The translations under genes were made by a program, and so were the position numbers. A stretch of DNA of 55,691 bases from an uncultured virus (IMG/VR IMGVR_UViG_3300043436_004224). Its lineage: Duplodnaviria; Heunggongvirae; Uroviricota; Caudoviricetes. Location: the IMG/VR virus record IMGVR_UViG_3300043436_004224. One strand, 5' to 3'. The number at the start of each line of letters is the position of its first letter. Within the stretch, counting starts at the first letter, position 1. The notes under the pieces were generated by a model. That model searched no databases. It was given only the letters and a program-made list of their open reading frames with translations, and was not told where the DNA came from. Positions 5,351 to 23,626 of the stretch are shown piece by piece.

Positions 5351-6760
5351 ATGGGTAAAAGTCTTATGGAGCAGCTAGCTCTTCTTTCTGAAGAAGAGCG
5401 TTTAGAGGCGCTCTCAGATATTGATCCAGATTCTCTTATATGGGATTGGACTGTCTGGGCTCGCCCGGAGCAGGTAGCCCCGCCGGGAGTTGATTGGAAC
5501 ATCTGGCTTGTTATGGCAGGTCGTGGTTTTGGTAAGACCCGACTAGCGGCAGAATGGGTTCGCGAACAGGCAAAGTACACAAACACCGGACAGCGACGTT
5601 TTGCACTTGTTGCCCGTACCGCAGCCGACGTACGCGACGTTATTGTTGAAGGTGAGTCGGGAATTATTAACGTATCCGCTCCCTCCGAGAGACCTCTCTA
5701 CGAACCTTCAAAGCGTCGCCTAACTTGGCCTAACGGAAACACTGCCACGCTATTTACCGCGGATGAGCCTGACGGTTTGCGTGGTCCTCAGTTCACTCAC
5801 GCATGGGGTGATGAGATTGCTGCTTGGAGGCAGACCCCTGACGCTGCAGGTATGACCGCCTTTGATAACCTCCGAGTTGGTACTCGTCTTGGTGCAAACC
5901 CGCAGATGGTCGTGACTACCACCCCCAAGCGTGTTCCGCTTCTATACAAACTTATTGAAGAGTCCAGAACTGACAAAGGTAACGTAATTATTACCAAGGG
6001 TTCTACCATGGACAACGCTGGAAACCTTTCGGCCTCATATCTTGACACTATTACCGGCGTTTACGAAGGTACAACTCTTGCACGCCAGGAGCTTTATGGA
6101 GAGATGCTAGAGGACCTCGAAGGATCTATGTGGAACGAAGAGATGGTTGAAGAAGCTAGACATGCTATGTACCCATTCTCCACTCCTCTAAGAGTGATTG
6201 GAGTGGACCCTTCTGTTGCTGAAAACCCTCGCGATGAGTGTGGAATTGTAGTTGTTGCATCTACTGCAGATTACGATCTATATAAGCGCGAAGCTTGGGT
6301 GCTAGAAGACGCGTCTGTCCTTGGATCCCCAGATACTTGGGCACGTAAAGTCGTTGAGATGGCACGCAAGTGGGGCTGCCCAGTTGTAGCCGAAGTAAAC
6401 CAAGGTGGAGCCCTAGTTAGAAACGCAATTCTTTCAATCGACCCGACTATTAAAGTTCTAGAAGTCCACTCAAAGCACGGTAAGCAGCTCCGCGCTGAGC
6501 CAATCGTCCTTGCTTACGAGCAAAAGCGCGTTCATCACGTTGGATATCTCCAAGATTTAGAGTCTCAAATGTATTCTTGGATTCCTGGAGAAGGAAAATC
6601 TCCTGACCGTATCGATGCACTAGTTCACGCACTTACTGCTTTGCTAATTAAACCACCACCAGGATTTAGTGGAGGAAAAATTAGAGCAAAATCCCTCAGC
6701 GACCGTAAAATACCGGGAGTATCGCCCTCTAGAAGCTCAAAAATATTTAGGGTCAGATAG
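5351..6760 (+). CDS. terL: Terminase large subunit
   Basis: Walker A GRGFGKT, LRGPQF...WGDE Walker B region, TTTP coupling motif, nuclease GVDP and DRIDA motifs. Confidence 0.95.
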   Translation: MGKSLMEQLALLSEEERLEALSDIDPDSLIWDWTVWARPEQVAPPGVDWNIWLVMAGRGFGKTRLAAEWVREQAKYTNTGQRRFALVARTAADVRDVIVEGESGIINVSAPSERPLYEPSKRRLTWPNGNTATLFTADEPDGLRGPQFTHAWGDEIAAWRQTPDAAGMTAFDNLRVGTRLGANPQMVVTTTPKRVPLLYKLIEESRTDKGNVIITKGSTMDNAGNLSASYLDTITGVYEGTTLARQELYGEMLEDLEGSMWNEEMVEEARHAMYPFSTPLRVIGVDPSVAENPRDECGIVVVASTADYDLYKREAWVLEDASVLGSPDTWARKVVEMARKWGCPVVAEVNQGGALVRNAILSIDPTIKVLEVHSKHGKQLRAEPIVLAYEQKRVHHVGYLQDLESQMYSWIPGEGKSPDRIDALVHALTALLIKPPPGFSGGKIRAKSLSDRKIPGVSPSRSSKIFRVR

Positions 6761-7449: not shown

Positions 7450-9198
7450 TTGGGTATTTTTAAGAAAGAGCCTCAGAAGCAAACTAGAACATCTAGTGGT
7501 GCTCCTCGCGCGACTGCTCCAAAGAATGCAACCAGAGTTGCCCCTGGAGTTTCTATAGACTCTTTTGGAGTCGTCTACGCCGAAGCACAAAACTTCAACA
7601 CACCTAGACCTCTTACTGCTGCCGCGGCTCAGGTAAATCTAAATGACAAAGGTGAAGCAGAGCAGTTTAAATCTCGTAGACAATCAGCATCTTCATCTTG
7701 GCAGACAGAGGCCTGGGAATACTACGATGCTATCGGAGAAGTTAAATATGCTTTCAACCTAGTTGCGTCTGTTGTTTCTCGTATTCGTCTGTACGCAGCT
7801 GCAGTCCAAAATCCAGCTGAAGCCCCAGCTCCAATTCTTTCTGTAGACAAAGTGGATGAGAGACTAGCTGCCGCTGCACAACGCGCACTAGAAAGACTAG
7901 ATTCCGCATTCGGTGGTCAGGCAGGTCTTTTGAAAGACGCTGCACTAAATCTTCAAGTGACTGGTGAGTGCTACTTAGTTCAGATGCCAGAGAGACTTGG
8001 ATCGGGTCTTCCAGAAAGCTGGGACATTCGTTCAGTTGATGAGCTTCAGGTTGACTCTAAAGGCAACTACGTAATTAATCAGAGTAGAGACGTCGGTAAT
8101 GGAAATAGCATGATGTCTTCTCGCAATAATAAAGACATAATTAAACTTCCAAATTCTGCGTTTGTCGGAAGAATTTGGCGAGCACACCCTCGCTACACGC
8201 AAGAGTCGGACTCTTCACTACGCGGTCTACTAGATCTTTGCGCTGAGCTACTACTTCTAAACCGCACCTTCCGTGCAACTGCACGTTCACGCTTGAACGC
8301 TGGTGCTCTTTACTTGCCAGACGGTCTTTCAGTAGCTGCGTCTCCAGACCCAGACTACCCATACGACGAAGACGGTAACTACAACGAGCAGTACAACCCG
8401 GAAGAGTCCGCTGACGACTTCGAAGATCAGCTAATCGACGCGATGACTACTCCGATTAAGGATGAGGACTCAGCGTCTGCTGTTGTTCCACTGATTATTC
8501 GTGGTCCTGCAGAACTTGGTGACAAGATTAAGCAGTTCAAGTTCGAGCGTTCATTCGATCCAGCGCTTTCTGAAAGAAGCGACCGCGTACTAGAGCGAAT
8601 CATGCAGGGTCTAGACGTTCCTAAGGACGTTGTAACTGGCCTAGCAAACGTTAAGTACTCTAACGCTCTACAGATTGACGAAGCACTCTACAAGGCACAC
8701 ATCGAGCCTCTAATGCTTTTGATTGTTGACGCTCTTACTGTTATGTACTTGCGCCCATATCTAATTGCTAACGGCTACCCAGAAGAACAAGTAAAAAACA
8801 TTTGCGTTTGGTATGACCCGTCTCTAGTTGCTACCCGCAATGACCGCGCAGCTGATGCTGACTCTGGTTTTGAAAAGATGGCAGTTAGCTATGACACATG
8901 GCGCAGAGCTCATGGATTCTCCGAGTCCGATGCCCCAGACCCAACCGAGTTTGCACTAAGACTTGTACTACAAAAGGGAATGATCACACCTGAGCTTACA
9001 GAGTCTATGCTCGCTAGTATTTCTCCAGAAATAATGGGAAAGATTAGAGATCAGGCTATGCAAAATAGCGGAGCAGCTATTCCGCCCGAAATTGACCAAA
9101 TTCTTAGCGGAGATACAGTCTCTCCAACGCCGGAAGCAGATGCTGCCGAAGCTCCACCAGCCGAGCCCGCGGCACCACTAGCAGAACCAGAGGTATAG
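7450..9198 (+). CDS. Portal protein
   Basis: 582 aa, downstream of terL; EAWEYYDAIGE, RIWRAHPR and GLDVP motifs typical of actinophage portals. Confidence 0.85.
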   Translation: MGIFKKEPQKQTRTSSGAPRATAPKNATRVAPGVSIDSFGVVYAEAQNFNTPRPLTAAAAQVNLNDKGEAEQFKSRRQSASSSWQTEAWEYYDAIGEVKYAFNLVASVVSRIRLYAAAVQNPAEAPAPILSVDKVDERLAAAAQRALERLDSAFGGQAGLLKDAALNLQVTGECYLVQMPERLGSGLPESWDIRSVDELQVDSKGNYVINQSRDVGNGNSMMSSRNNKDIIKLPNSAFVGRIWRAHPRYTQESDSSLRGLLDLCAELLLLNRTFRATARSRLNAGALYLPDGLSVAASPDPDYPYDEDGNYNEQYNPEESADDFEDQLIDAMTTPIKDEDSASAVVPLIIRGPAELGDKIKQFKFERSFDPALSERSDRVLERIMQGLDVPKDVVTGLANVKYSNALQIDEALYKAHIEPLMLLIVDALTVMYLRPYLIANGYPEEQVKNICVWYDPSLVATRNDRAADADSGFEKMAVSYDTWRRAHGFSESDAPDPTEFALRLVLQKGMITPELTESMLASISPEIMGKIRDQAMQNSGAAIPPEIDQILSGDTVSPTPEADAAEAPPAEPAAPLAEPEV

Positions 9199-9201
9199 AA
9201 A

Positions 9202-9657
9202 ATGCATTACGACAAAACAGAGATGGCTAAAAAACTGGCAGAGCTACTGTCTGAAGTAGTTACTGCAAAGTTCATAATGCAGGGCTACCACTGGAACGTA
9301 CTTGGCCCAGACTTCGGTGAGTACCACGAGTTCTTTGGCGAACTTTACGAGGACCTAGAGTCATCTGTTGACCCAATCGCAGAGAATATTCTTAAGATTG
9401 GTTACCCAGCTCCGTACTTACTGTCCGACTTTTGCGAACTGTCAAAGATTCAAGAAGCTAGACAAGATGGTTCATCTTCTAGATTCCTACTAGAGTCCGC
9501 TCTAAGAGTAAACCAGTGCGTACTTGATTCTTTGATGGAGGCTTTTGTTTGTGCAGAGTCCTGCAGCGAGCAAGGTCTTATGGACTTTTTAGCGGGACGT
9601 ATTGACACCCACAAAAAGTGGAACTGGCAAATTAAGGCCTTCCTAGGAGTTCGCTAA
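9202..9657 (+). CDS. dps: Dps family ferritin-like protein
   Basis: HWNVxGxxFxxxHxxF and DxxAE ferroxidase signatures; 151 aa. Confidence 0.9.
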   Translation: MHYDKTEMAKKLAELLSEVVTAKFIMQGYHWNVLGPDFGEYHEFFGELYEDLESSVDPIAENILKIGYPAPYLLSDFCELSKIQEARQDGSSSRFLLESALRVNQCVLDSLMEAFVCAESCSEQGLMDFLAGRIDTHKKWNWQIKAFLGVR

Positions 9658-10961
9658 TGTCTGAGTATCTACAAAGCGTTCTTAAAGCTGCAGGTGGCCA
9701 TGCCGCTCCTGTAGAAAACCTAAAAGAAAAAGACATTCGTGCTTCCCTAGAGGCAGCCGGAATGCTTGTACCAGAAGAGCAAGACCTTGCCGATGCGCTA
9801 CTAGAGATTGTAGAGAAGCATGGAAAATTTAACGACGACAACACTGGCGTTTGGGCTGGCTATACTTCTGCTAAAGAGAATGCAGAAAACGCAGAGATTG
9901 GCGTTAAGTGCGGCAACTGTGTTTTCTGGCAAGCACCTAACGGATGTCAGATTATTGTTGCTGAGGTAGAGGAAGGCGGCCTATGTCGTTTTGCTGTGCT
10001 CCCAGACGGATCTGTAACTCCTGGTTCCTCTACTCCTAGCGAGGAAGATGAATCCAAAGAGCCTGTAGAAAAATATTTCTCTAAGGAGCCAAAGCTAATT
10101 CAAGACCTACTAAAGTCTGCAATTAGCGAAACAGAGGACGAGTACTCAGACGAGTATCTAGATATCTATGACCTAACTCCAACACAAGAGACCGTCGATT
10201 CTTCAAACTTCAAAGAAGCTGCTGACTATGAAAAGCCAGTAGTAGTTTACAGAGATGACTCTGGAATGTATCTTGTTGATGGACACCACAGGTGCGCTAC
10301 TAAAGTAAAAAACGGTGGCAGTGGGATTAAGGCAAAAGTATATAAACAGCTATCGCTAATAGCGGCAGCCGAGTCTGAAGCTAACCTTAAAAAAGATGCA
10401 GATGACCCTTGCTGGTCCGGATACGTCCAGGTTGGAATGAAAAAGAAGAACGGTAAGCGCGTACCTAACTGCGTACCGTCAGCTGCCACAATTAACATGC
10501 TTGTAGATGACTTTAACTCTCAGTTTGGGTCCGCTCGTCATATTACTAAAGAAGCTGCCTATTCAGTAGCCCGAAGTGCCCTTGAAAGGTACAGCGACTT
10601 GTCTGACGAGGAAATATACTCTGCCATCCTGTGGGAGCTACACGCTTTCGCTGAGTACGCTACTTCAGGCTCTGTGGAAGACGTCTCAGATGACTTCTCC
10701 GAGTACGCAGGGTTGACAGCTGAAGGCCACCCAGGCAGGCAGTCTTCCATAGTGGCAGCTGCAACATGGATTGCCGGTGCTTCCGAGCTGTCCGAATCTT
10801 CTAGAGATGCAATAGCAAATGCCTTTAATGACGAGCTAGACCAAGTAGATTCTTTGCATGCAGCAACTAGAGTCCGTGCTCTTATTTCTAGTGGAGCGCT
10901 ATCTGATAGCACTCTAGCTCAAATAAAAGCCTTACCAGAAAAATACCCTAAAGTCAGCTAA
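9657..10961 (+). CDS. Multidomain head-module protein (HiPIP-like Cys motif, ParB-like domain, CWxGY motif)
   Basis: CGNCVFW...C...C; PVVV...YLVDGHHR; DPCWSGYVQVGMKKKNGKRVPNCVP. Confidence 0.65.
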   Translation: MSEYLQSVLKAAGGHAAPVENLKEKDIRASLEAAGMLVPEEQDLADALLEIVEKHGKFNDDNTGVWAGYTSAKENAENAEIGVKCGNCVFWQAPNGCQIIVAEVEEGGLCRFAVLPDGSVTPGSSTPSEEDESKEPVEKYFSKEPKLIQDLLKSAISETEDEYSDEYLDIYDLTPTQETVDSSNFKEAADYEKPVVVYRDDSGMYLVDGHHRCATKVKNGGSGIKAKVYKQLSLIAAAESEANLKKDADDPCWSGYVQVGMKKKNGKRVPNCVPSAATINMLVDDFNSQFGSARHITKEAAYSVARSALERYSDLSDEEIYSAILWELHAFAEYATSGSVEDVSDDFSEYAGLTAEGHPGRQSSIVAAATWIAGASELSESSRDAIANAFNDELDQVDSLHAATRVRALISSGALSDSTLAQIKALPEKYPKVS

Positions 10962-11018: not shown

Positions 11019-14000
11019 ATGCTCGACGGCAAAAACCCTGAATTCGAACCGATTATTTCTAGTATCGGATTTAACGATGGAGCTAACAAAGGCTTCTGGA
11101 GAATCCAGCCACGTGACGACGAAGGTCAGTGGATCGAGATGGGCGCGGACGTATTGTTCCGCTTTCGTACCGGAAGCGGTAACTTAGTTGTTGCTACTGA
11201 GCGTGGAGTTTATGTAGGACCTGGCGGTCGTCCTGGAATGGCCCGAGTCTTAATTTCAAAAGACACCGAGTCTGGACTAAAGGCTGGCGTCTATCAAGTA
11301 GAGTCAAGAAACTTGCAGCAGTTCAAGGCAATTATTCCAAACGCTAAATCTAAAGCGGGTGCGCCAGCGGCTAGAAAAGACAAGTTCGGTAAGCCAGTAA
11401 GAACTCTAGAAGATTCCAAACTACCAGCGCTACAAGATTTGCTTTCTGGTTCTCAAGAAATTACAGAAGAAGATCGTCGTCTAGCTCAGGGTGATCTAAC
11501 TCCAGAAGAGCGCGAAGCCGAGCAGGATGGAAGACAGAAGTCTCCAGTTGCAGATTTGCCAGCTGGTTTCGAATCTGAAAACCCAGAGGAAGTAAAGAAA
11601 CTTCTCCGTGAGTCAGGTGTTGATCCAGACGAGTTTGACAAAAATACTAGCCCTAGTTTTGAACAAGATCCAGAGCTAGCAAAGAAGGCTCAGGAAGCTA
11701 CTAAAGGCCAACTACTAAGAAAAGAAAAGCCTACAGCTTATGGTCGCGGCAACACTAAAGACTTCTCTGAGCTACCAGACGGCACCGTTTTAGATGAATA
11801 TCAGAGAGCTCAGTTCTACCCATCCCTCGACAGCTACACCGGACCGTTTGGCCCAGTGTGGCGTCAAATAATTAAAAAAGATGGTAAATGGTTTTTACGC
11901 GGTAAAGATGGGAAACCAAAAGGTGCTGCACTAAAAAGAGCAGACTTAATTGCCAGACTCAATAGCGGAACTTTAGCTGACACCGGTGCTGGCTCTAAGA
12001 TCGATGAAAATGGAAATCAAGTCGCCGCTTGGGCAGACGAAGTCGGTCAGCTAACTCCTTCAGAGATAGCTAACTCCGACCCGGCCGATGATGTAGTTAA
12101 AGACTTAATGGCAGATGTGGCTTTTGACGGCGACACTACTCCAGATCTAGATTCAGTTCTTAAAAAGCAGGAAGCTTTAATATCTTTTAGAGAAACCGCT
12201 AAGACTCAAAAAGTCCCTTTTGATCTTGACCGTGGAGATATTGTTTTAGGTGAAGACGGATCAGAAAAAACAATTCTAGATGTTGAATTAGGAAACGCTG
12301 CCACCGGAGTTCCAGCTAAGGTTAGAGTACAGAACTCTGACGGAAGCATCGAAGAGCTTTCCGTAAGCATGAGGGACAAATTAAATATTGCAACTGGACG
12401 GCGTGGACAGATAAAGCGTCCGCAAGCCCCGGCCTCTAGACCCGAAGCACCTACTCCGGAAGTAACTGCCCCGGAGGCCCCGAGAGTAGATCCTGAAACT
12501 GTAGAGCCTGGAGAGATGGCCCCTGAAGACGGTTTAACTGTTGTCATGACCCCAGATGGTCTAGCCCCGGCCAACTTCCCGCCTGAAGATCGACTAGATG
12601 ACGGCTCTAACTTTGATCTCCCTACGCTAACAGACGAAGAGTTGGCTGCAGCTCGAGGAATGAGCTTGTCACCTCTTCTAGATCCTGATGGCACTCCTGC
12701 AAAATACGTTGACGAAAATGGCAATCTTGTAGACGCAGAAGATCCTTTTGCGATGTTAGCTGCTCTTGCTAAGGCGTTCCCTAACGCTAAATTTGCTCCT
12801 GACGGCTCACTAATTTTGCACCGCCAAGTAGATACAAAGAGCGGAAAGATTTTTGAGCTCCGAGCCAGCAACTCCGGTAAGAGGGCTATCGTATACTCCT
12901 TCAGGTTCTACAATCCTGCAAACCCTGAAGACTATGTAGAGTATCAGCACAAAGACGATAGGCACTCGGTAACTGCACTATTTAGCGAGGCAAACGGTCC
13001 CGAAGGGCTATTGGACAGACTGCTCGGTAGGGTAGATCGAAAAGGAAAAAATTGGGGCCTACCGGAAAACTTTAAATTCGGTAACACTAGGTATCAAAAA
13101 TCTGACAGCTTATTTAAAAGATCCAGATGGTTTAGGTCTGGTACTGGTGACCGCAAAAAAATGGAAGAAATTGGTGACAACGCCGTTCGTCTTGCTCAAG
13201 GTAGAGCCGCAGTTCTAGAAAAAGAAACCAAGAGAATTAAAAACAGCGCTATCCCGTCGCTATGGGAGGCATTTGATGAACTATTTAAGTCGGGCCCAAC
13301 AAGCGAAGAGCGAGATGTAGAGCTTAAAGACATGTTCTACCAAACCCTATACGGTGTCTTTGGAAGAATTCCACTTGGCGAAAAGTCTCATGCAAACGCT
13401 AGAAAAGCTATTCGTTCAGAATTTAGACGAAAGTTTCCTACTGCCAGCAAAAAAATGGAGCGCGCTTTTAACGGCTACGTAACTTCTGCGTCTGAGCGTA
13501 TGCGCGGAATCTACAGAGGAACTGATCCTCAGGTTAGATCTATTAGATATGCATCTAAAGATAGAACAAGAACTATTGAACGAGGCATGACTGTAGAGTA
13601 CACCAACAACGTTGGGCAAACTTCTATAGTCAAGGTCACTGATTTAGTCGAGAACACTACTTCTAACCCCAACGATAGGGACTCGTACGACTACGGCGAC
13701 AATGTTATTGTTACAGATGCTAACGGCCGGAAGATAAGAATAAATGCTATCAAGCTAAAAATCATGCTGTCTCAGGGCACCCCTCTTACCGCATACAGAC
13801 CTAATCTTCTAGGTGAAGAGCTGCGCCAGGCTAGAATTGACAGTGGACTTGCAGAGGCACCTAGCACTTCTCGACCTAGAAGAATTCCAGGTGCTGGCAC
13901 TGTAATATCAGATCCGGCACCGCCTCCAATGCTTGTCGATGACTTTGTTGTAGGTGAGATGCTCTACAGTAAGTCAAATGGCGCTCCTCTTGGAATAATT

Positions 14001-14129
14001 AAAGCAATCAGACCGACTACTTCTCGTAATGGCACTCAGGGGCTAGCGTTCCTATACACATCGCCTGACGGTACCGAAAACCAGGTTGCTTACGCTTTAG
14101 GTACGGAAGTAACACCAAAAAAAGTTTAG
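11019..14129 (+). CDS. Large head-module protein (1036 aa), probable N-terminal part of a frameshift fusion
   Basis: Long ORF between portal and protease genes; N-terminal QPRDDEGQW motif; ends at A-AAA-AAA-GTT-TAG. Confidence 0.8.
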   Translation: MLDGKNPEFEPIISSIGFNDGANKGFWRIQPRDDEGQWIEMGADVLFRFRTGSGNLVVATERGVYVGPGGRPGMARVLISKDTESGLKAGVYQVESRNLQQFKAIIPNAKSKAGAPAARKDKFGKPVRTLEDSKLPALQDLLSGSQEITEEDRRLAQGDLTPEEREAEQDGRQKSPVADLPAGFESENPEEVKKLLRESGVDPDEFDKNTSPSFEQDPELAKKAQEATKGQLLRKEKPTAYGRGNTKDFSELPDGTVLDEYQRAQFYPSLDSYTGPFGPVWRQIIKKDGKWFLRGKDGKPKGAALKRADLIARLNSGTLADTGAGSKIDENGNQVAAWADEVGQLTPSEIANSDPADDVVKDLMADVAFDGDTTPDLDSVLKKQEALISFRETAKTQKVPFDLDRGDIVLGEDGSEKTILDVELGNAATGVPAKVRVQNSDGSIEELSVSMRDKLNIATGRRGQIKRPQAPASRPEAPTPEVTAPEAPRVDPETVEPGEMAPEDGLTVVMTPDGLAPANFPPEDRLDDGSNFDLPTLTDEELAAARGMSLSPLLDPDGTPAKYVDENGNLVDAEDPFAMLAALAKAFPNAKFAPDGSLILHRQVDTKSGKIFELRASNSGKRAIVYSFRFYNPANPEDYVEYQHKDDRHSVTALFSEANGPEGLLDRLLGRVDRKGKNWGLPENFKFGNTRYQKSDSLFKRSRWFRSGTGDRKKMEEIGDNAVRLAQGRAAVLEKETKRIKNSAIPSLWEAFDELFKSGPTSEERDVELKDMFYQTLYGVFGRIPLGEKSHANARKAIRSEFRRKFPTASKKMERAFNGYVTSASERMRGIYRGTDPQVRSIRYASKDRTRTIERGMTVEYTNNVGQTSIVKVTDLVENTTSNPNDRDSYDYGDNVIVTDANGRKIRINAIKLKIMLSQGTPLTAYRPNLLGEELRQARIDSGLAEAPSTSRPRRIPGAGTVISDPAPPPMLVDDFVVGEMLYSKSNGAPLGIIKAIRPTTSRNGTQGLAFLYTSPDGTENQVAYALGTEVTPKKV

Positions 14130-14146
14130 GCCCCTCTCAGGGGCTC
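14117..14146 (+). other. Putative programmed -1 ribosomal frameshift signal
   Basis: In-frame A AAA AAA heptamer, 5 nt spacer, GGCCCCT-CTC-AGGGGCT hairpin; -1 frame is open to 16276. Confidence 0.7.
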
Positions 14147-16276
14147 ATCTCATTCAGAGAAGTACAAGTAAATCCTGACTCGGACGTCGAGTTTGATTTA
14201 CCTGATTGGGAAGACGTCCCTTCTGAAGTTAGAGCCCTACCAAATGCAGTCATCCCTGAGTTTATAGATTCTAAAGCTGTAAGGGCCCTACCAGAGTTTG
14301 CAAACTTAAGTAGATATGGTGGAGCTACTTATGAAGCTAACCTAGAAGCAGCTGCAAAAAGAGCATACCTACTGCGCGATGAGATGCACCGAAGAGCGAT
14401 GCAAATCTCGAGTTTCCCGGCTAGAGACCTTCTTGGCACCGGTTATCAGCTAGATAAAAACTCTATTTCCCTAGGCGAAGAAGTTCCAGCCTCTAGCATT
14501 TCAATCCTAAGAAATGCGGCGTTTGACTCGCAAGACTTAAGTTTTGCTCGCGCTGTGGTAAAAATTGCTGGAGCAAAAAATCCCAGTTCAAATTTTTACA
14601 ATGAGCAATTTGAAAAAAGTTTAGCGTTTTTTGTCCAGTTCCTTAGGTCAGACGACCCGAATCTCACGATTGACGAAACTGTAGACGGTATCCTTGAGCG
14701 AGGGGTAAAATTTACACCTAGTTCGGGCTCGGAGAGTGTTTCGCCTTTTGGATCCATTCGAGTGCCTTTCAAGGTTACAAGAACTGAACAAACTAAAAAC
14801 GGGTTCATAACTCCTTCGGTAGATATGTCTCCTTATAGGGCTTCTGTAGGAGTTTTAAATAATTTTTATTCAAATAATTTAACTCCAACCGGCCTCAGGC
14901 CTGAAAAGACTTCGTTAGTCATTAGCGCAACTAACGAATTGGCCTCAGCTGAGTACACAAGAGTAACTACTTTGGTTAAAAAAGACGGCTTCTCGGGGGT
15001 TCAGGGAGTCAACATAGCTACAAACACGTACGGCAACGTTGTGCCTATGACTAATGAAAATGAATCTCTAGACCTTATAGCGTCTACAGTCACAAATAAT
15101 ACGATTATTATCAACCACGAAAGCGCTTCTAAAACACCGTCTGCTTTCAGGATAGATCCTATAGTTGAGACAGTTCTACATGAGTACGGCCACACAGTTG
15201 AAAGCAATGTTTTGGGCGTCACCTGGGGGTGGAGCAACAACTCAAGCACTGAAGCCTATGCTGAAGTCAAGGCTAGAAAAGTTTCAGAGTACGGTGAAAA
15301 CAACATTCGTGAGCACTTTGCCGAAAGTTTTGCTAAGTACCTGGGCTCAGGGCAGGCTTCTAAAGAATTTAGAGATTTCTTAGAAAACCAAGTTGGAATA
15401 AAAGAACTAAGCTTAGAGACCCTTTTGCCAAAAATTTTCCAAAATGATAATTTTGTAGACGGACTAGAAAAATACTTAAACGAAAACGCGGATTTGGGCG
15501 GGTACACCGTAAAGATGACTTCAAAGGGTAATAACACAAAAAATGCAGATCTAAGGACCCTATTAAATAGAAAAGGAAGTAGTAGGCATCTTGGCGTAAC
15601 TCTATCGTGGGAGGCAAGCGTACTAGATTCCCAGGGTCGGGATACTGGAGGATCTGGAATGTCTAGAGCTCTAAAAGTAGATCCAAATACTGGCGAAATT
15701 ACAGTCAGCCATCTATCTTTTAAGCTTGGTGACAGCGTTCAAGGTCTCGGCCTGGGGGAAAAGATCACAAAAGCAGCGGTAGAATACTATAAATCTATAG
15801 GAGCAGACAGAATAAAAACATCTGCAGCTGCCACCGATAGCTACCCAAACGGCGCTTACATGTGGGCTCTTCAAGGGTTTGATTTTGCAGATTCAGCAGA
15901 AAGAGATATGTATCACAAGAGGGTTAAGCTTGCTTATGCTGCTTTAAGCGAATATGCTGCAGATAGCGAAAGATACAATTCTATGGACTTTATGGAAGTC
16001 AGCAGAGAAATTGCACGAAAAACAAACTCTGACCAAACCTCGCTGCTACAGCTAATCGCTGAACTAAGAAGAAACGGTTGGGTAATCAGTAATGATCTTC
16101 TCAACCAACTAAAGTCAATAGCGGACAAAAACGGAGTAGAAGTTACAGCTAAACTTATTGCAGAAATAGGCAGAGGCAATAAAAAAGACAAGGGAAAGAA
16201 GTTTTCTACCCTTGGTAGGCACATTATGGTGGCTACTGCGAGAGGCTGGAGTGCAGTTATGGAGCTGAAGAATTGA
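14123..16276 (+). CDS. Zincin metallopeptidase + GNAT acetyltransferase module (-1 frame extension of 11019 ORF)
   Basis: HEYGH with SEYGENNIREHFAESF; QGLGLG acetyl-CoA motif with GAYMWALQGF. Frame is open 87 codons upstream of the first ATG (14384). Confidence 0.75.
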   Translation, partial: SLGPSQGLISFREVQVNPDSDVEFDLPDWEDVPSEVRALPNAVIPEFIDSKAVRALPEFANLSRYGGATYEANLEAAAKRAYLLRDEMHRRAMQISSFPARDLLGTGYQLDKNSISLGEEVPASSISILRNAAFDSQDLSFARAVVKIAGAKNPSSNFYNEQFEKSLAFFVQFLRSDDPNLTIDETVDGILERGVKFTPSSGSESVSPFGSIRVPFKVTRTEQTKNGFITPSVDMSPYRASVGVLNNFYSNNLTPTGLRPEKTSLVISATNELASAEYTRVTTLVKKDGFSGVQGVNIATNTYGNVVPMTNENESLDLIASTVTNNTIIINHESASKTPSAFRIDPIVETVLHEYGHTVESNVLGVTWGWSNNSSTEAYAEVKARKVSEYGENNIREHFAESFAKYLGSGQASKEFRDFLENQVGIKELSLETLLPKIFQNDNFVDGLEKYLNENADLGGYTVKMTSKGNNTKNADLRTLLNRKGSSRHLGVTLSWEASVLDSQGRDTGGSGMSRALKVDPNTGEITVSHLSFKLGDSVQGLGLGEKITKAAVEYYKSIGADRIKTSAAATDSYPNGAYMWALQGFDFADSAERDMYHKRVKLAYAALSEYAADSERYNSMDFMEVSREIARKTNSDQTSLLQLIAELRRNGWVISNDLLNQLKSIADKNGVEVTAKLIAEIGRGNKKDKGKKFSTLGRHIMVATARGWSAVMELKN

Positions 16277-17088: not shown

Positions 17089-20000
17089 ATGTCCGATGCT
17101 CGTATGTATACAATCCCAGGTGGAGTTCAGGCCGAAGCAAAAAAAGCTCTTGCATGGCGTAAAGAGTACAAGCGCGGTGGTACACCTGTTGGATTGAATA
17201 CTGCACGCACTCTTGCTAAGGGCGGACAGATTGGCATTGAGAAAATTCGTCACATTGCTAAATACTTCCCTCGTCACGAAGTTGATAAAAAGGGTAAGGG
17301 CTGGGCACCAGGCGAAGACAAGTTTCCTTCTAACGGTCGTATTGCATGGGCACTCTGGGGCGGAGACGCTGGACAGCGTTGGGCATCTGCAATTGTAGAA
17401 CGTGTAAATAAAAAAGAATCTACCACTGCTTCTGCTGGCATATACGGTGTAGAAGATTTACAGCCAGAGAGCGAATTAAACGCTTTCAAAATGGCGCATG
17501 AATTAGACCCGAACGTTGGTCCAGAGTTTATGTGCCGAGTTCGTCTAGACAACTCTGGAATCGACAGACTATACAAAATAGACATTGATGGTCAGATTTA
17601 TGTCTGGGATGGTTCCGTTTGGGACAACATGGGAGACGTCGATGGAGATGTCTATCTCTATGACTCAGAGCTAGATAATCCAGACGATTTAGTAAAGAAG
17701 ACCCATGTTTTGGTGGACCCTTCTTCTGCTGTAGTTATCTCTGCATTCCTACAAGAGCGCCCTTTCACTCCAGTACTTCTAGAGGAGATTGACCCTGAGG
17801 AAACTCAGATGATGTACGACGCTCTAGCTGAAGAAGATTTTGACTTCATAGACAGAGTTATAACTTCTGCCGGTGTCCCTCTTTCAGGGGAAGGCGACGG
17901 TGTCTACACCGAAGACGAGCGTTCAGAGAATGCATCAAAGCAGGTAAGAGACGCTACTGGAAGATTTGCTACTGTAGGTCAGAGAGTGGCCGTGGGCGGA
18001 GACATACAAAGAGGCTCTGGAACTATAACCAAACTAGACGCAAAAAATGGGTTAGTCGACGTTAAACTAGACAGTGGAAAAACTGTAACTATTGATAGCA
18101 AATTCAGCCAGCCACTAAAAAATATCCCTGGCCCTATAGCAACACCTAAACTTCAAGATGTACCTTTAGATTTGTCCGGCATAATTGGGGAACCTAGAAC
18201 ACCAATTAATATGCCAAAGGCACACCTTCCGGGCTCGCTGCCCCCTATGACTTCAGACGAGCTTCAACTTATGCTTGACGACTTTCCTAGTTATGTCAGA
18301 CGCATGCGTCAGTCCTACAAACCTTACGATAAGGCGGACAAAGATAGGGTGCAAAAGAGATGGGGCTCAGACGTAGCTCAAGAGGCGTCTATATTAGCTT
18401 CGGCTGAGAAAGAGGAAGCTCTAACCCCAGAGACTACAGATGTTCCTGCTAAATACTTAGCCATAGTATCTCCAGACGACCTTGAAGCGGTTATGGACTT
18501 AGTAGCAATAGTACCTGCGTCTAAATCATCTACCGAGCCTACTACTTATGTCAGAGAAGACGAGAAGTGGGTACCAAATCCTCAAATTCTGCGCGATCTA
18601 AAGTCAGCTTCGCCACCACCGGTTGCAGCTCTAACTGACAAAGATATCTTGAACGATGTTCTCTTGCAGGTTGATGGCAAAGCTCCAGTTGTTGCAACTG
18701 GGTTGCCATTCTTCTTGTTCTGGGAAAAAGTTGTAGAGCCAATTCTGGCTGCTGGTGGACTAGACCGTAACCGAGGCAATGCCGAAGAACTTCGACGCTA
18801 CTGGACATCCGGTAAGGGTGCTGCCAAGATCCGCTGGGGTACTCCCGGAGACTGGACCCGCTGCGTCCGCAACCTCTCTAAGTACATGGGCCCTCGTGCG
18901 AAGGGCTACTGCCAGCTTCGCCACAAGGATGCAACTGGTGTATACACCGGGAGCAAATTAAACCCTGGTAAGAAAGATAAGTCTTTTAGTACTTTGACTA
19001 ACTTGTACGTTTCAGAAGAAGCGTTTGATGAGACTATGATTCAAAGATCTAGTCAATCAGCAGCAGCTAAAGATGCTCGAGAGAAAATTGGACTAGTTGC
19101 ATCCATTAAAACTGGTAAAGGCTCAAGCTTCACAATTCCAATGCTAGTTCCAGAAGAAGTAGAGTCTGGAGACGGTAGGAAGTTCCGTAAGGGCTCTATC
19201 TCGCTGCGAGACCTGCCAGTCCCTCTACTTTGGCAGATAAAAACTGGATCAGGGCACGATGGCTCTGTAGTAGTTGGAAGAATTAACACCATAGAAAGAA
19301 TTGAAGGCGGGCTAGGAAATGCGTCAGGAGTATTTGACGACGGCCCGTATGGAAAAGAAGCAGAGCGTCTTGTTAGAAACGGGTTCCTTCGCGGTGTATC
19401 CGTTGACCTAGATCAGTTTGAGGCAAAAGAAGATAAAAAGCCTAAATCTGAACTTGCAGATGGCGATGACGAGCAAGAAATCGGTAAAGACAAACTCACT
19501 ATAAATAAGGCACGCGTAATGGCTGCTACAATTGTAGCTAAGCCGGCATTCCAAGAATGCTCTATTTTACTTAATGCCGAGGGGGATCAGGAGGAAAACA
19601 TGACCCCACAAGATGGCGTATATGAAGAGTCTGTCACAGACTTTACTGACGTTGAGCCGCTACTAGCTTCAGGATTTCTAGACTCAGAGATACCTGTACT
19701 ACCACCACAAGAGTGGTTTGAAGACCCTAAGCTAACTAAGCCAACCCCTCTAACTGTAGACCCAAGCGGTCGCATCTACGGACACATTGCAGCATGGCAC
19801 GTAAACCACATTGGTATGCCTCGCTCAACTCGTCCACCGCGCTCTCGTAGCAAGTACGCATACTTCCACACTGGAGTAGTTAAGACTGATGCAGGCAAGG
19901 ATGTTCCAGTTGGACAGCTAACTCTTGCTGGCGGTCACGCAGACCTACACGCTAGCGCATCTCAGGCTGCTAAGCACTACGACGACACAGCTTCTGCAAT

Positions 20001-21390
20001 CGCAGACGTACATGCCGGAGAAGATGAGTTTGGTATCTACGTATGCGGCTCACTGCGTCCAGATGCAAGCGAGATGCAGATCCGTGCACTACGTGCTTCT
20101 GCCCCTTCGGGTGACTGGAGACCAATCAACGGCGCTCTAGAGCTTGTTGCAGTTTGTCAGGTTAACGTTCCAGGATTCCCTATCGCTCGTGCGCTAGTTG
20201 CCTCTGGAAAGATTATGGCTTTGGTTGCTGCTGGTGCTAACTACATGGCAATTCTTAAGAGTGAGCACGTAGAGCACTTTGCGACTAGGGCGCTTCTACT
20301 TTCGCAGCTTGCATCAACCTCTCCAGACCTTAAAGGCAGAGTTCGTACTGCTAAAAAAGCTGCTAGAGCATTTGCACTTGACTCGGCCACACGAAAAGCA
20401 GATGAGCTACGAGAAAGAGCTCTAGTTGCTTCTGCAATTACTGAGCTTGCTAAATTTACTGAAGAAGAAAGAGCAGAGCTGTCTGAAAAAGGTTTTGCTC
20501 TACCTGACGGTTCTTACCCTATTCGAAACGAAGAAGATCTAAAGAACGCAATACGGGCTTATGGTAGAGCAGAGAAGTCAAAAAGAGCATCTGTTCGTAA
20601 GCACATCGTAAAGCGTGCTCGTGCTCTAAAAAAGCAATCATTGATCCCAGACAACTGGGCTAACGCTGGATCAGCGGAAGCCATGTCTATCGTTGCTTCA
20701 ATGAGATCGAAGATCTCAGAGTTTGCCCTGCCAGAAGAAGAGATTACTGACGAAGATCTTGAAGAACTGATAGACGTTAAGGCAGAAGCTGACAAGCAGA
20801 CTGAAGAAGAGATTAAGGCAGCTGAAGAAGTAAAAAAAGGTGAAGCCCCTACCGTAGATAGGGACGAAGATGGTCGTCCTAAGTATGTGTCAGGGGTAAA
20901 TCAGCCTAGAGATGCTAAGGGTAAGTACCGCACAGTGTTGGCCCGCTTAAAGCAGGACTTAGGTGTTGCTGGACTATCTAGAGCCCTCAAAAAAGCAGAG
21001 CAAGCCGAAAACCTAGACTTTGCCGGAGATTACGCAAATTCAGTTGGAGCTAGCACCGAACTATTGGGAATGATAGACCGACTAGATTCAGGTGCCCTAA
21101 ACGCTAGAGCCCTAGAAAACGTCAGATTGACAGCTGCAGAGCTTGGTAAGACAATTGCAAACCTGCCACTACCCTTTGGTAAAGAGGCAAGCAAGCTAAA
21201 ATTTAGTGATTTGCCCACTGGGCTTAAAGACCTAATCGAACAAATGATTACGAGGGTCGAAGCCAAGATTGGTAAAGAGGACGCGGACATTGCCACGCAA
21301 AGCCTGAGGTCCTATATGTCCGGAGCGGACGTCTACTCTCAGGGTGAAGTTCAGTCTGAGATGAGCAAGCTACTCCGACTCCTTACCTAA
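17089..21390 (+). CDS. Capsid maturation protease-containing multidomain protein (1433 aa)
   Basis: Directly upstream of capsid gene; ESGDGR..F, PLLWQ...GHDGS.VVGRI and GVSVD prohead-protease motifs, plus several accessory domains. Confidence 0.8.
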   Translation: MSDARMYTIPGGVQAEAKKALAWRKEYKRGGTPVGLNTARTLAKGGQIGIEKIRHIAKYFPRHEVDKKGKGWAPGEDKFPSNGRIAWALWGGDAGQRWASAIVERVNKKESTTASAGIYGVEDLQPESELNAFKMAHELDPNVGPEFMCRVRLDNSGIDRLYKIDIDGQIYVWDGSVWDNMGDVDGDVYLYDSELDNPDDLVKKTHVLVDPSSAVVISAFLQERPFTPVLLEEIDPEETQMMYDALAEEDFDFIDRVITSAGVPLSGEGDGVYTEDERSENASKQVRDATGRFATVGQRVAVGGDIQRGSGTITKLDAKNGLVDVKLDSGKTVTIDSKFSQPLKNIPGPIATPKLQDVPLDLSGIIGEPRTPINMPKAHLPGSLPPMTSDELQLMLDDFPSYVRRMRQSYKPYDKADKDRVQKRWGSDVAQEASILASAEKEEALTPETTDVPAKYLAIVSPDDLEAVMDLVAIVPASKSSTEPTTYVREDEKWVPNPQILRDLKSASPPPVAALTDKDILNDVLLQVDGKAPVVATGLPFFLFWEKVVEPILAAGGLDRNRGNAEELRRYWTSGKGAAKIRWGTPGDWTRCVRNLSKYMGPRAKGYCQLRHKDATGVYTGSKLNPGKKDKSFSTLTNLYVSEEAFDETMIQRSSQSAAAKDAREKIGLVASIKTGKGSSFTIPMLVPEEVESGDGRKFRKGSISLRDLPVPLLWQIKTGSGHDGSVVVGRINTIERIEGGLGNASGVFDDGPYGKEAERLVRNGFLRGVSVDLDQFEAKEDKKPKSELADGDDEQEIGKDKLTINKARVMAATIVAKPAFQECSILLNAEGDQEENMTPQDGVYEESVTDFTDVEPLLASGFLDSEIPVLPPQEWFEDPKLTKPTPLTVDPSGRIYGHIAAWHVNHIGMPRSTRPPRSRSKYAYFHTGVVKTDAGKDVPVGQLTLAGGHADLHASASQAAKHYDDTASAIADVHAGEDEFGIYVCGSLRPDASEMQIRALRASAPSGDWRPINGALELVAVCQVNVPGFPIARALVASGKIMALVAAGANYMAILKSEHVEHFATRALLLSQLASTSPDLKGRVRTAKKAARAFALDSATRKADELRERALVASAITELAKFTEEERAELSEKGFALPDGSYPIRNEEDLKNAIRAYGRAEKSKRASVRKHIVKRARALKKQSLIPDNWANAGSAEAMSIVASMRSKISEFALPEEEITDEDLEELIDVKAEADKQTEEEIKAAEEVKKGEAPTVDRDEDGRPKYVSGVNQPRDAKGKYRTVLARLKQDLGVAGLSRALKKAEQAENLDFAGDYANSVGASTELLGMIDRLDSGALNARALENVRLTAAELGKTIANLPLPFGKEASKLKFSDLPTGLKDLIEQMITRVEAKIGKEDADIATQSLRSYMSGADVYSQGEVQSEMSKLLRLLT

Positions 21391-21405: not shown

Positions 21406-21511
21406 TATACCTAGGTAGAGCGCCTCACGCCGACGTGTGTTGGGTCCCTCCACCTTGACTGATTAAACAGGACGTAAAATGCGTCCGACAACAACTGGCC
21501 TAGGAGGTACA

Positions 21512-23626
21512 GTGTACGACCAAATTAAAACTCAGCTAGACGCAATGTCTGAGTTAAGCGACGAACAGCTCGCTGAACTACAGGCAGATATCGTCAGCCA
21601 GTTCGAAATGGTTGAGGGCGAAGACCCGACTACTGAAACAGTTGATGCTATGCAGTCTCTAGCAGACTCTATTGACATGGTTCGCGGCGAGCTTTCTCGT
21701 CGTGAAGAGTTAGCAGCAGAACTTGCTGCTAAGGCAGCGGAAGCTACCGCTCGTGTTAAGGGTGAAGCTAAAGACATGCAAGAAGAAGATATGGCTATGA
21801 CCGAAGATGAGTCCATGGAAGAGCCTATTGCTGAAGAAATGCCTGCTACAGAAGATGTATCTGAGGATGCACCTGTAGAAGAAGTTTCTGAAGAAGTAGA
21901 GGAAACCGAGGAAGTCGAAGAGGAAATGGTCGAGGAAGAAGACAAGAAGAAGGAGAAAGAAATGTCTGTAGATGAAACTATCGCAGCATCCGCATCCGAA
22001 GAGTCGACTACCGAGGCTGTTGCACCTGAGACAGCTATCGAAGAGGTCGCTGCTCCGGAAGCAGAGCTTTCTGCAGAAGAGACTGTAGCCGAGGCTCCAG
22101 TCGAGGTAGAGGCAGTGGTCGAAGAGACTACTGTTGACACCGCAGAGGCAACCGAAGCAAGTGCAGAAGTTTCCGAGGAAGCTGAATTCTCAGCTGACTC
22201 AGAAGTTGAAGCAGAGGCATCACAAGCATCAACAAATCAGGAAGACGGTTCTGAACTATCAACCGAAGAAACAACCAACGAAAACATTGAATCATCAATC
22301 GCTCTTGTAGAAGAGCAGGAAGAGCAGGCCCCAGTGACCGCTTCAGCCGAACAGCCTTTCGAGGCCCCAGCTGACCGCCAGCCTGTTGTTCAGGTTACCG
22401 AAGTTCCAGTAGCAATTACTGCTGGTGCTGACATTCCTGGTTACACAGCTGGTAGCACAATCAACGACATGTACGAAGTAGCTCAGGCTATGGAAAAGCG
22501 AATCCACTCGCTTCGTCGTGTTAACGGAGGAGACGGAGAGCAGCACATTGTTGCATCTGTAACCACCTCGTTCCCAGAGGATCGCACCCTCTCAACCGAT
22601 GCAGAGTCTAACTCGATCAAGATCAACGCTGTTTCAAGCCAGGCACTTGTTGCTTCTGGTGGACACGCAGCGCCTCTAGAGGTCAAGTACGACATTTACG
22701 CAATCGGTTCTACCACCAACCGCCCAGTTCGTGACTCATTGCCACGTTTCCAGGCAGACCGCGGTGGTATCCGTTTCGTAACCCCACCAAGCTTTGCTGC
22801 TGGTACTTATGCTGACGCAGTCGGCGTATGGACTGCTGCTGTAGATGCTGCCCCAGAGAGTGCTACTAAGACTAGCCTAACTGTAGCTGCTGCTGCAGAG
22901 GCTACTGCTACCACTGACGCTGTAACCCTACAGCTACAGTTCGGTAACCTTATGACTCGCGCTTACCCAGAGTTGATTGCTCGCCACAACGAGCTAGCTC
23001 TAGTACAGCACGCACGTGAGGCTGAGCAGTATGTAATCGGCAAGATCGAGGCTGGCTCTACTGCTGTTACTTCTGGAACCCTAATCGGTTTTGGTCGCGA
23101 CTTCCTAGTATCAGTCCGCAAAGCAGCTGTTGCTTACCGTTCACGTCACCGCATCTCTCAGAGCACAACTCTGAAGGCAATTGTTCCTGACTGGATCTAT
23201 GACGCAATGGCAGCTGACCTAGCTCTAGCTATGCCAGGAGACGGTACTCTGTCTGTTGGCCGTGGCGAGATCGAGGGTTACCTATCCCAGCTAAACGTAG
23301 CTCTAGTTGCATCACCTGACATGACCGTTTTCGGTACTCAGGGTGGATCTGCAGCAATCCTAGAGTTCCCGGACAGCTTCAAGTGGTACCTATTCGCTGA
23401 GGGAACATTCTTGTTCCTTGACGGTGGTTCACTAGATCTAGGTATCATCCGCGACAGCTCCCTTGTTGGAACCAACGACTACAAGATGTTCGTTGAGACC
23501 TTCGAAGGTGTTGCAAAGGTTGGTATTGAGGCACTTGCAATCACCCAGACCGTTAACGTTAACGGTGTGGCTGCTGCTCTACGCGACACCACTGGTGGCG
23601 CAACTGCAGCTGCAATCGAGGTCTAA
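21512..23626 (+). CDS. Major capsid (hexamer-type) protein with N-terminal acidic scaffold region
   Basis: GTG start with AGGAGG RBS; Glu/Ala-rich N-terminus; LVASGG..AP, RGGIRF and LDLGIIRDS..TNDY..F.ETFEG motifs as in cluster B-like actinophage capsids. Confidence 0.85.
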   Translation: MYDQIKTQLDAMSELSDEQLAELQADIVSQFEMVEGEDPTTETVDAMQSLADSIDMVRGELSRREELAAELAAKAAEATARVKGEAKDMQEEDMAMTEDESMEEPIAEEMPATEDVSEDAPVEEVSEEVEETEEVEEEMVEEEDKKKEKEMSVDETIAASASEESTTEAVAPETAIEEVAAPEAELSAEETVAEAPVEVEAVVEETTVDTAEATEASAEVSEEAEFSADSEVEAEASQASTNQEDGSELSTEETTNENIESSIALVEEQEEQAPVTASAEQPFEAPADRQPVVQVTEVPVAITAGADIPGYTAGSTINDMYEVAQAMEKRIHSLRRVNGGDGEQHIVASVTTSFPEDRTLSTDAESNSIKINAVSSQALVASGGHAAPLEVKYDIYAIGSTTNRPVRDSLPRFQADRGGIRFVTPPSFAAGTYADAVGVWTAAVDAAPESATKTSLTVAAAAEATATTDAVTLQLQFGNLMTRAYPELIARHNELALVQHAREAEQYVIGKIEAGSTAVTSGTLIGFGRDFLVSVRKAAVAYRSRHRISQSTTLKAIVPDWIYDAMAADLALAMPGDGTLSVGRGEIEGYLSQLNVALVASPDMTVFGTQGGSAAILEFPDSFKWYLFAEGTFLFLDGGSLDLGIIRDSSLVGTNDYKMFVETFEGVAKVGIEALAITQTVNVNGVAAALRDTTGGATAAAIEV

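Follow-up and report, generated by a model that had tools for sequence, protein, structure and literature searches.

Most of the -1 frameshifts annotated in phages concern tail chaperones or add small decorations to capsids. Here we describe a locus in an uncultured lake caudoviricete (IMG/VR record IMGVR_UViG_3300043436_004224) where a -1 ribosomal frameshift very probably appends some 700 residues of predicted enzymatic domains to a protein of about 1,000 residues encoded among the head genes. The gene in question, open reading frame (ORF) 1, codes for a multi-domain protein of an uncharacterised family (P0001, 1036 aa) and occupies positions 11019–14129 on the + strand of the window, by which we mean the whole 55,691 nt stretch analysed, which belongs to one contig of 128,478 bp (G+C 44.8%). 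It lies between the portal, ferritin-like and ParB-like genes on one side and the prohead-protease and major-capsid genes on the other.

In the gpG/gpGT pair of phage lambda and in other tail chaperones, the ribosome slips near the 3' end of a gene of a structural module, giving a short and a long product that share their N-terminal part, and the arrangement is conserved across divergent phages (Atkins et al., PMC5009743, drawn on in part here and below). The capsid frameshift extensions of T3/T7 gene 10, Lactobacillus phage A2 and the Listeria phages A118, A500 and PSA likewise add a C-terminal, Ig-like module to part of the structural protein; such modules occur in or out of frame among relatives, which has been ascribed to recombination-driven module movement (PMC5009743). 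Unlike the tail chaperones, the locus described here belongs to the head block rather than the tail block, appears to add ~700 aa of enzymes instead of a small assembly domain, and varies in its cargo. Unlike the capsid and Ig-like extensions, which are small and sit on the major capsid or a tail protein, it would place catalytic modules (zincin, GNAT, exonuclease) on an uncharacterised protein of ~1000 aa.

As to the cargo, the closest systems are the polyvalent proteins (Iyer et al. 2017, PMC5512222) and the actinophage MuF-toxin fusions (PMC7302621), in which, in the parts of these papers drawn on here, several effector domains share one polypeptide among virion genes. A zincin-like metallopeptidase (MPTase) is the commonest polyvalent-protein domain and GNATs occur too (PMC5512222), and the ParB-like gene adjoining ORF1 is a further likeness to polyvalent-protein loci. 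In contrast to our locus, the accounts of both speak of one continuous ORF, "frameshift" not occurring as a word in PMC5512222, and ORF1 itself shows no MuF match in Pfam or PHROGs. Phage -1 frameshifting in tail chaperones and capsid proteins, polyvalent effectors and MuF-toxin fusions are thus all already described. A literature search covering the main texts of one library returned no account of a conserved frameshift that joins catalytic effectors to a protein of the head module, and no paper that brings programmed frameshifting and polyvalent proteins together. The nearest hint is a sentence of the PRFect paper which, in the part drawn on, names pairs of MuF-like and VIP2 ADP-ribosyltransferase genes as frameshifts predicted but not annotated ("false positives"), without analysis (PMC10885494).

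The junction at the 3' end of ORF1

ORF1 ends with the codons GTA ACA CCA AAA AAA GTT TAG. Within the 0-frame triplets CCA AAA AAA lies the heptamer A_AAA_AAA (14117–14123, + strand), a run of seven A's (A7) of the canonical slippery form X_XXY_YYZ, and the 0-frame stop TAG (14127–14129, + strand) follows one codon beyond it. Five nucleotides 3' of the heptamer, on the same strand, is a GC-rich stem-loop (14129–14145), a putative frameshift stimulator of 7 bp, including a closing G-U pair, with a 3 nt loop. The -1 frame, which begins AGT TTA GGC (SLGPSQG...), is open from 14123 to 16276 on the + strand, for 717 codons and a stop at 16274–16276. Its preceding stop sits 19 codons 5' of the heptamer and the 0 frame closes one codon 3' of it, and the heptamer lies where the two frames overlap.

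A gene caller would report only the distal part of this extension, as an ORF of 630 aa from the first ATG (14384–16276, + strand), which is probably not an independent gene; the 254 nt between it and ORF1 (14130–14383) would then appear as a gap. Read in the -1 frame, 14123–14383 (+ strand) holds a linker and the first conserved helices of the extension, with residues 1–47 of the modelled -1 translation (P0002) disordered, and contains no canonical start: the earliest ATG, GTG or TTG in the window's -1 frame is the ATG at 14384, 87 codons past the heptamer. A preliminary description of this DNA had pointed out the ORF1 end, the heptamer, the hairpin 5 nt downstream, the -1 frame open to 16276 and the 254 bp gap, all of which are confirmed in the sequence, and the junction peptide it gave for the fusion, ...TPKKSLGPSQG..., is the one we obtain. 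The predicted -1 product has 1035 + 717 = 1752 aa, with ...GTEVTPKK joined directly to SLGPSQGLISFREV... at the junction. The peptide spanning the junction would be ...VTPKKSLGPSQGL..., in which the junction KK is a trypsin cut site, and 14123–14383 would give rise to the tryptic peptide SLGPSQGLISFR.

Taken singly, each of these elements is weak, and it is their combination that is unique in the window. The heptamer by itself is not unusual, A_AAA_AAA occurring in frame four times in the window (+ strand ORFs of at least 150 aa). When all in-frame X_XXY_YYZ heptamers are considered, we find 84 (+ strand ORFs of at least 90 aa), and just one of them, that at 14117, opens a -1 frame far past the 0-frame stop, with 717 codons against 38 for the runner-up.

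The layout resembles that of the -1 cassettes of E. coli dnaX and the IS3 family, where an A-rich X_XXY_YYZ heptamer is followed by a stem-loop ~5–6 nt downstream and may be preceded by a GGAGG-like element. It differs from them in using A_AAA_AAA or, in relatives, C_CCA_AAA in place of A_AAA_AAG, and in placing the 0-frame stop 0–1 codons past the site. A GGAAG is present at 14105–14109, ~7 nt 5' of the window's heptamer, and the same place is taken by GGAGG in locus L011, GAGG in L010 and L013, and GGAGA in L006. We considered an upstream Shine-Dalgarno-like stimulator, as in dnaX, and do not claim one, since the GGAAG/GGAGG overlaps the conserved G-T-E-V codons.

The stem of the window, GGCCCCU cuc AGGGGCU, has a predicted energy of -11.8 kcal/mol and is modestly better than dinucleotide shuffles of the 35 nt past the heptamer (z -2.33; 4 of 200 shuffles fold as well). 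A stem is predicted no more than ~6 nt past the heptamer in all 11 distinct frameshift-type junctions described below (-14.8 to -24.9 kcal/mol over 60 nt), with varying loops (cuc, cuac, gacc, gaaca, ugcgca), and in the clade with the C_CCA_AAA heptamer the stems are longer and unrelated in sequence. For ten junctions, the number of shuffles folding as well, out of 200, was 4, 5, 67, 5, 9, 31, 41, 5, 0 and 1. What supports the stem as part of the predicted signal is its recurrence at the right distance in two sequence-unrelated clades, and not its energy or covariation.

Comparative evidence and alternative explanations

A word-indexed search with the extension returned 10 relatives (BLASTP identity 32–96%), and the loci of the extension alignment represent four distinct junctions: the window type, L003, L004/L005 and L006/L007. 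The sequence CCAAAAAAAG is found once, at the junction, in each of eight sequences, the window included, and is followed by one codon, TAG and the GC stem; the extensions of those loci are only ~35% identical to that of the window. Searching with ORF1 gave 54 homologue clusters, 36 of which end in KK[A/V/D] and nine in [S/G]PK, so that 45 stop at the same KK or PK position; six run in frame into an HExxH region, and three have other ends (KKA plus 10 residues in P0032, unrelated ends in the remaining two). P0032, available as a protein only, terminates in ...KPKKAQAPNRGLLC, where the 0-frame stop seems to have moved 10 codons downstream across the hairpin region, with KK kept. Across a 17-sequence alignment reaching down to 39% identity, K1034 and K1035 never change.

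Scanning viral contigs with this 17-sequence ORF1 alignment yielded 24 loci, 20 of which were analysed; left out were L009, identical to L008 and the window, and L016, L027 and L030, whose matches break off well short of the C-terminus, in most cases at the end of the contig. In six of the 20, A_AAA_AAA and TAG are accompanied by an open -1 frame (L008, L010, L011, L012 and L013, 701–716 codons; L021, 262 codons). Another five have C_CCA_AAA right before TAG and an open -1 frame (L026, L028, L029 and L031, 710–721 codons; L015, open to the contig end). Eight continue in frame for ~360–373 residues (L014, L017, L018, L019, L022, L023, L024 and L025), and one, L020, runs off its contig.

The succession of A_AAA_AAA, one codon, TAG and a GC stem is kept in all six distinct junctions of this A_AAA_AAA clade (window, L010, L011, L013, L006 and L021), whose extensions are mutually 34–41% identical where homologous and whose ORF1 parts are 31–55% identical. 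All six agree at the third positions of the four codons that end ORF1 (xxA CCA AAA AAA); at the 36 third positions upstream of these, mean pairwise identity is 0.13–0.67. In a more distant clade, all five distinct loci carry at the homologous position (...GE.R[GS]PK) a second canonical heptamer, C_CCA_AAA. TAG is the 0-frame stop in all 11 distinct frameshift-type junctions, as compared with 11 of 40 stops in the window (+ strand ORFs of at least 100 aa), and overlaps both the stem and the -1 codons. The in-frame relatives, on the other hand, have non-slippery codons at the same place in five of five distinct loci: CCT AAG in three, CCT AAT in one and CCT AAA in one. Slippery codons are thus present exactly where a shift is needed. 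The preliminary description had proposed aligning homologous loci to see whether heptamer and hairpin are conserved while the C-terminal modules vary, which is what the alignment reveals, and had named in-frame homologues without the signal as evidence to the contrary; in-frame homologues do exist, but they are a minority and are specifically those without the slippery codons, so that they argue for the signal rather than against it.

We consider a programmed -1 ribosomal frameshift at A_AAA_AAA to be very probably the means by which the fusion is made. A first alternative is that of two separate genes, in which the zincin-GNAT protein is started inside the gap, by a non-canonical start or by termination-reinitiation, and the Lys-Lys end of ORF1 is kept for protein reasons. 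This would agree with the output of gene callers, which give stand-alone proteins of 572–685 aa in 10 of 10 extension relatives, starting at various non-homologous points 0–60 residues upstream of the position equal to 14384; with the GTG or TTG found 34–60 codons past the heptamer in some relatives; and with the weak GGAAG/GGAGG motif 5' of the heptamer. In the window, however, there is no ATG, GTG or TTG for 87 codons, and both protein conservation and the position-3 bias of substitutions start right at the heptamer, upstream of every candidate start. The region before ATG 14384 is conserved in relatives at 32–38% identity, including the two distant ones (35–38% in that alignment), with motifs such as ...LPD.W[ED][DN]VP.E... 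and ALPEFxxLxxYGGxTxExNL in its 87 codons, and the start-free stretch is itself conserved as protein (SLGPxQGL..REV..DSD..FDLP.D.WDDV). Over codons 1–43 past the heptamer, which lie at or upstream of every canonical start, the fractions of differences at codon positions 1, 2 and 3 are 0.32, 0.30 and 0.52 (252 codon pairs, long-extension junctions of the A_AAA_AAA clade), or 0.34, 0.33 and 0.55 when the hairpin codons are omitted. The first ATG, GTG or TTG of the -1 frame comes 25–103 codons past the heptamer across the 11 junctions, and before it, in five loci, the -1 frame has no stops, the 0 frame 2–6 and the +1 frame 5–13. This comparison shows that the former gap codes in the -1 frame from the heptamer onward, without a start of its own.

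Further observations speak against separate genes. The junction Lys is always AAA and the Pro always CCA, in a window that makes frequent use of AAG and of the remaining Pro codons (AAA makes up 56% of Lys and CCA 40% of Pro codons), and the in-frame relatives change to CCT AAG. Moreover, a natural in-frame fusion of ORF1-like and extension-like parts exists in P0039 (1773 aa), with which residues 21–1031 of ORF1 align at 18–1052 (45% identity) and the -1 translation, from Q10, at 1062. In the predicted trans-frame product Q10 comes 10 residues after V1031, and P0039 shows just this +10 spacing expected from a -1 slip, so that it matches the predicted 1752 aa product residue for residue in its layout; AGSRRRASGQS forms its linker at the place of TPKKSLGPSQG in the window. 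We therefore regard two separate genes as very unlikely, and the surmise of the preliminary description that the gap is coding and yields a fusion of ~1750 aa receives strong comparative support from protein conservation, position-3 bias and P0039.

The same product could arise by transcriptional slippage, RNA polymerase adding one A within A7, so that an A8 mRNA would carry the fusion as one continuous frame. The run of seven A's is indeed homopolymeric in all six junctions of its clade, and products of this type are known to arise from slippage along A/T runs (PMC5009743). In the sister clade, though, C_CCA_AAA offers just four A's and is followed immediately by the stop, and the conserved stem 5–6 nt past the site has the geometry of a ribosomal stimulator. 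Seven A's are short for efficient bacterial polymerase slippage, and C_CCA_AAA is a classical site for tandem slippage of ribosomes and an unfavourable one for polymerases. The C_CCA_AAA clade and the stem position thus argue for a ribosomal rather than a transcriptional slip; polymerase slippage may contribute within the A7 clade, and as the sole explanation we judge it very unlikely.

The IMG/VR contigs L001 and L002 are identical to the window over the 200 nt aligned around the site, and Logan contigs from four runs of four studies, picked among the runs not flagged as possible sources, span 14117–14123 without an inserted or deleted letter. The preliminary description had called for a check of reads for A7 versus A8: at the contig level, which is what the comparison covers, all six agree on A7. 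A7 is the assembled majority state, and as contigs drop rare variants, a minority of A8 may exist in reads. A broken gene or an assembly error, that is, a one-base deletion in a once-continuous gene of ~1750 aa with no recoding, might be suspected from the existence of in-frame versions (P0039 and the zincin-only clade) and the error-proneness of homopolymers, but is hardly credible given the A7 in those two viral contigs and four runs, the out-of-frame layout of 11 distinct junctions with two different heptamers, downstream frames that substitute like coding sequence and stay open for 263–721 codons or as far as the contig reaches, and the 45 of 54 homologue clusters that stop at the same KK/PK position.

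A number of observations weigh against a programmed ribosomal frameshift, or against its having a set function on a head protein. A_AAA_AAA is far less shift-prone than A_AAA_AAG in E. coli (Atkins et al., PMC5009743); about half of bacteria have a single tRNA-Lys (PMC5009743), and the tRNAs of the phage contig are Leu-taa, Met-cat and Asn-gtt, with no tRNA-Lys among them. The stem shows no covariation (RNAalifold, covariation term +0.31), its CCCC/GGGG core being invariant; three of the ten stems are unremarkable against shuffles (67, 31 and 41 of 200); and as the stem also encodes the conserved -1 peptide G-P-x-Q-G, constraints on RNA and on protein are inseparable. The in-frame relatives show that the long form alone can suffice, so that a set ratio of the two forms may not be essential, and the frameshift could be a tolerated accident of module insertion. 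Lastly, ORF1 and six diverse homologues have no Pfam or PHROG match, to MuF or any other family, and ORF1 has no recognisable virion-protein family.

Domains of the extension and exchangeable cargo

An AlphaFold model of the 721-residue -1 translation P0002, made with 23 sequences, has a mean pLDDT of 83.2 and a pTM of 0.72 and shows, after the linker, a zincin metallopeptidase domain of the lethal-factor/PPEP type (P0002 ~85–430; 14363–15400, + strand), assigned by fold and motifs, followed by a GNAT-fold acetyltransferase domain with a helical insertion (P0002 ~447–721; 15449–16273, + strand). The zincin motif HEYGH is encoded at 15179–15193, with SEYGENNIREHFAE further downstream. In VIA-align comparisons, the region matches the catalytic region of lethal factor (1yqy_A, Z 10.8, 201 aligned residues, root-mean-square deviation (rmsd) 5.6), PPEP-3 (9g0j_A, Z 9.8) and PPEP-2 (6fpc_A, Z 9.1), and a sequence profile search of the PDB finds lethal factor (2l0r, E 0.004), pairing HEYGH with HEFGH and SEYGENNIREHFAE with SYGRTNEAEFFAE. 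H357, E358, H361, Y394 and E401 are invariant in the 23 sequences, and the aligned Y394 and E401 are the residues that we take to correspond to lethal factor's catalytic Tyr and third zinc ligand. In the predicted structure, HExxH and a downstream Glu on the next helix thus stand within a zincin fold. With anthrax lethal factor and the Pro-Pro endopeptidases the domain shares the fold, HExxH and the downstream Tyr and Glu; unlike them it is part of a phage protein and fused to a GNAT, and its 16.6 bits against the Pfam ATLF model (PF07737) are below the cut-off of 27.4, so that it is not a filed ATLF member.

The GNAT region resembles NatD (4u9w, Z 10.3) and RimI (5isv, Z 9.7, rmsd 2.2) in VIA-align, and Foldseek returns many GNATs at a probability of 1.00, the best at E 1.6e-3 and none at E ≤0.001; no Pfam GNAT model matches the extension at E ≤0.01. 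Its fold is accompanied by the acyl-CoA loop Q-G-x-G-x-G (15740–15757), in which Q544-G545-x-G547 is invariant in the 23 sequences. On the strength of the model, the extension is a lethal-factor-like zincin with intact catalytic residues followed by a GNAT-fold domain, and motifs, profile match and predicted structure together bear out the HEXXH zincin and GNAT fold that the preliminary description had read from the sequence. By gene position and domain content it has the marks of a polyvalent protein, zincin and GNAT sharing a single frame that lies between the portal gene and the capsid gene. An exhaustive profile search with the extension found 2388 proteins at E ≤0.001; among the best 150 of these, full-length matches are proteins of 640–692 aa and P0039, and matches limited to the GNAT region come, frequently in several copies, from giants of 1400–7600 aa, which is the pattern of polyvalent proteins.

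Behind other junctions, the cargo differs. The -1 extension of L015 (6899–7822), preceded by C_CCA_AAA, TAG and a stem, is not a zincin but a DEDD/RNase_T exonuclease, which matches PHROG 192 and, with E 5e-13 and a score above the cut-off, Pfam PF00929, and inside which the contig ends. L021 carries 263 aa that match only PHROG 2563, a family of unknown function. In L026, L028 and L029 the extension is ~710–720 aa long and has a zincin with HETGH and none of the window's GNAT motif, and the N-terminal extension sequence of L031 is near-identical to that of this group. The C-terminal parts of the L026 (6335–8497) and L028 (6221–8353) extensions have no Pfam or PHROG match; their Y-R-G and S-S-T-N strings recall ADP-ribosyltransferase motifs, a resemblance of motifs alone. 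The in-frame clade has a zincin-only tail of ~365 aa. Judged by these alignments, the junction behaves as an exchange point for modules, which are read either in frame or, as predicted, by a -1 shift.

Genomic setting and proposed working

The genes preceding ORF1 code for the large terminase (5351–6760), the portal (7450–9198), a ferritin/Dps-like protein (9202–9657) and a ParB-like protein (9657–10961); the extension is followed by two small ORFs, a 1433 aa protein with a prohead-protease region (17089–21390) and the major capsid protein (21479–23626). This order is kept in L004 and L006, where the positions of the ferritin/Dps-like and ParB-like genes are likewise filled. The ferritin/Dps-like gene matches Pfam Ferritin at E 1.2e-13, a ferritin-like gene within a head module being unusual, and its neighbour has a weak match to ParB-like nucleases (E 4.6e-4) that is below the cut-off. 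In the 17089–21390 ORF, the prohead-protease-like region corresponds to PHROG 18402, with a weak match to Pfam S78; the ORF contains in-frame A_AAA_AAA at 17139 and 20832 and A_AAA_AAG at 20628, none of which opens a long -1 frame.

The phage GenBank collection contains no nucleotide or protein match to ORF1 or the extension, and the genome collection a single weak ORF1 relative, on a contig of an Actinomycetota metagenome-assembled genome (26% identity over 17–198). By its capsid protein, the only query with relatives in the phage collection, the nearest described phage is Actinomycetia phage DSL-LC01 (68% identity), which has at the position of ORF1 and the extension a single gene for a hypothetical protein of 3289 aa (OQ999401.1, 52800–62669; L032, 1–9835) with no Pfam match and, by tblastn, no match to ORF1. 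At the place of the 17089–21390 ORF, the annotation of DSL-LC01 has three separate "capsid maturation protease" genes.

A PDB profile search with ORF1 gave nothing meaningful, and there was no usable ESM Atlas match. Its structural model (pLDDT 66.9, pTM 0.38) contains, by VIA-align, small SH3/KOW/Tudor-like barrels (397–463 and 842–920) and a helical bundle (717–831), with Z at most 8.3; a Foldseek search of BFVD with the whole model places actinophage "ADP-ribosyltransferase" giants at the top, at a TM of only ~0.07. The N-terminal ~100 residues are the most conserved, at 55–78% identity in relatives that share nothing else. That ORF1 is head-associated is suggested by gene position and strengthened by the analogy with MuF-toxin and polyvalent proteins.

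In the mechanism we propose, most ribosomes would stop at TAG 14127 and release the 1036 aa protein, and a fraction would slip one base back on A_AAA_AAA at 14117–14123, aided by the stem-loop 5 nt downstream and perhaps also by the nearby 0-frame stop, and go on in the -1 frame to 16276. The resulting 1752 aa protein would consist of residues 1–1035 of ORF1, a disordered linker of ~45 aa, the lethal-factor/PPEP-like zincin and the GNAT. The fixed minority of extended protein that the preliminary description envisaged would presuppose a given slipping efficiency. The ORF1 part that the two forms share would direct them to a common location, which, if polyvalent proteins are a guide, is most likely the capsid interior; the enzymes would enter the host with the DNA, where the zincin might cut host proteins or process the fusion, a role proposed for MPTase domains in the part of the polyvalent-protein paper drawn on here (PMC5512222), and the GNAT might acylate a host target. 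Packaging and injection of the fusion are conceivable on this analogy, though we would stop short of calling them probable. More doubtful still is the broader proposal that the 3' end of the ORF1 family is a conserved "recoding dock", a fixed plug-in point for swapped effector cargo, at which the slip rate, and not a promoter or a separate gene, would set the number of injected enzyme copies per virion.

If the predicted frameshift is real, a whole family of uncultured actinophages from fresh water uses recoding to equip what is probably a virion protein with large catalytic modules. The "hypothetical" genes of ~630–720 aa annotated behind these ORFs would then not be independent genes, and the junctions, with two heptamers, in-frame controls and varied cargo, would form a natural series for the study of frameshift signals. 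The locus would define an unnamed family of carrier proteins of ~1000 aa, and it suggests that the dose of a packaged effector can be set at translation.

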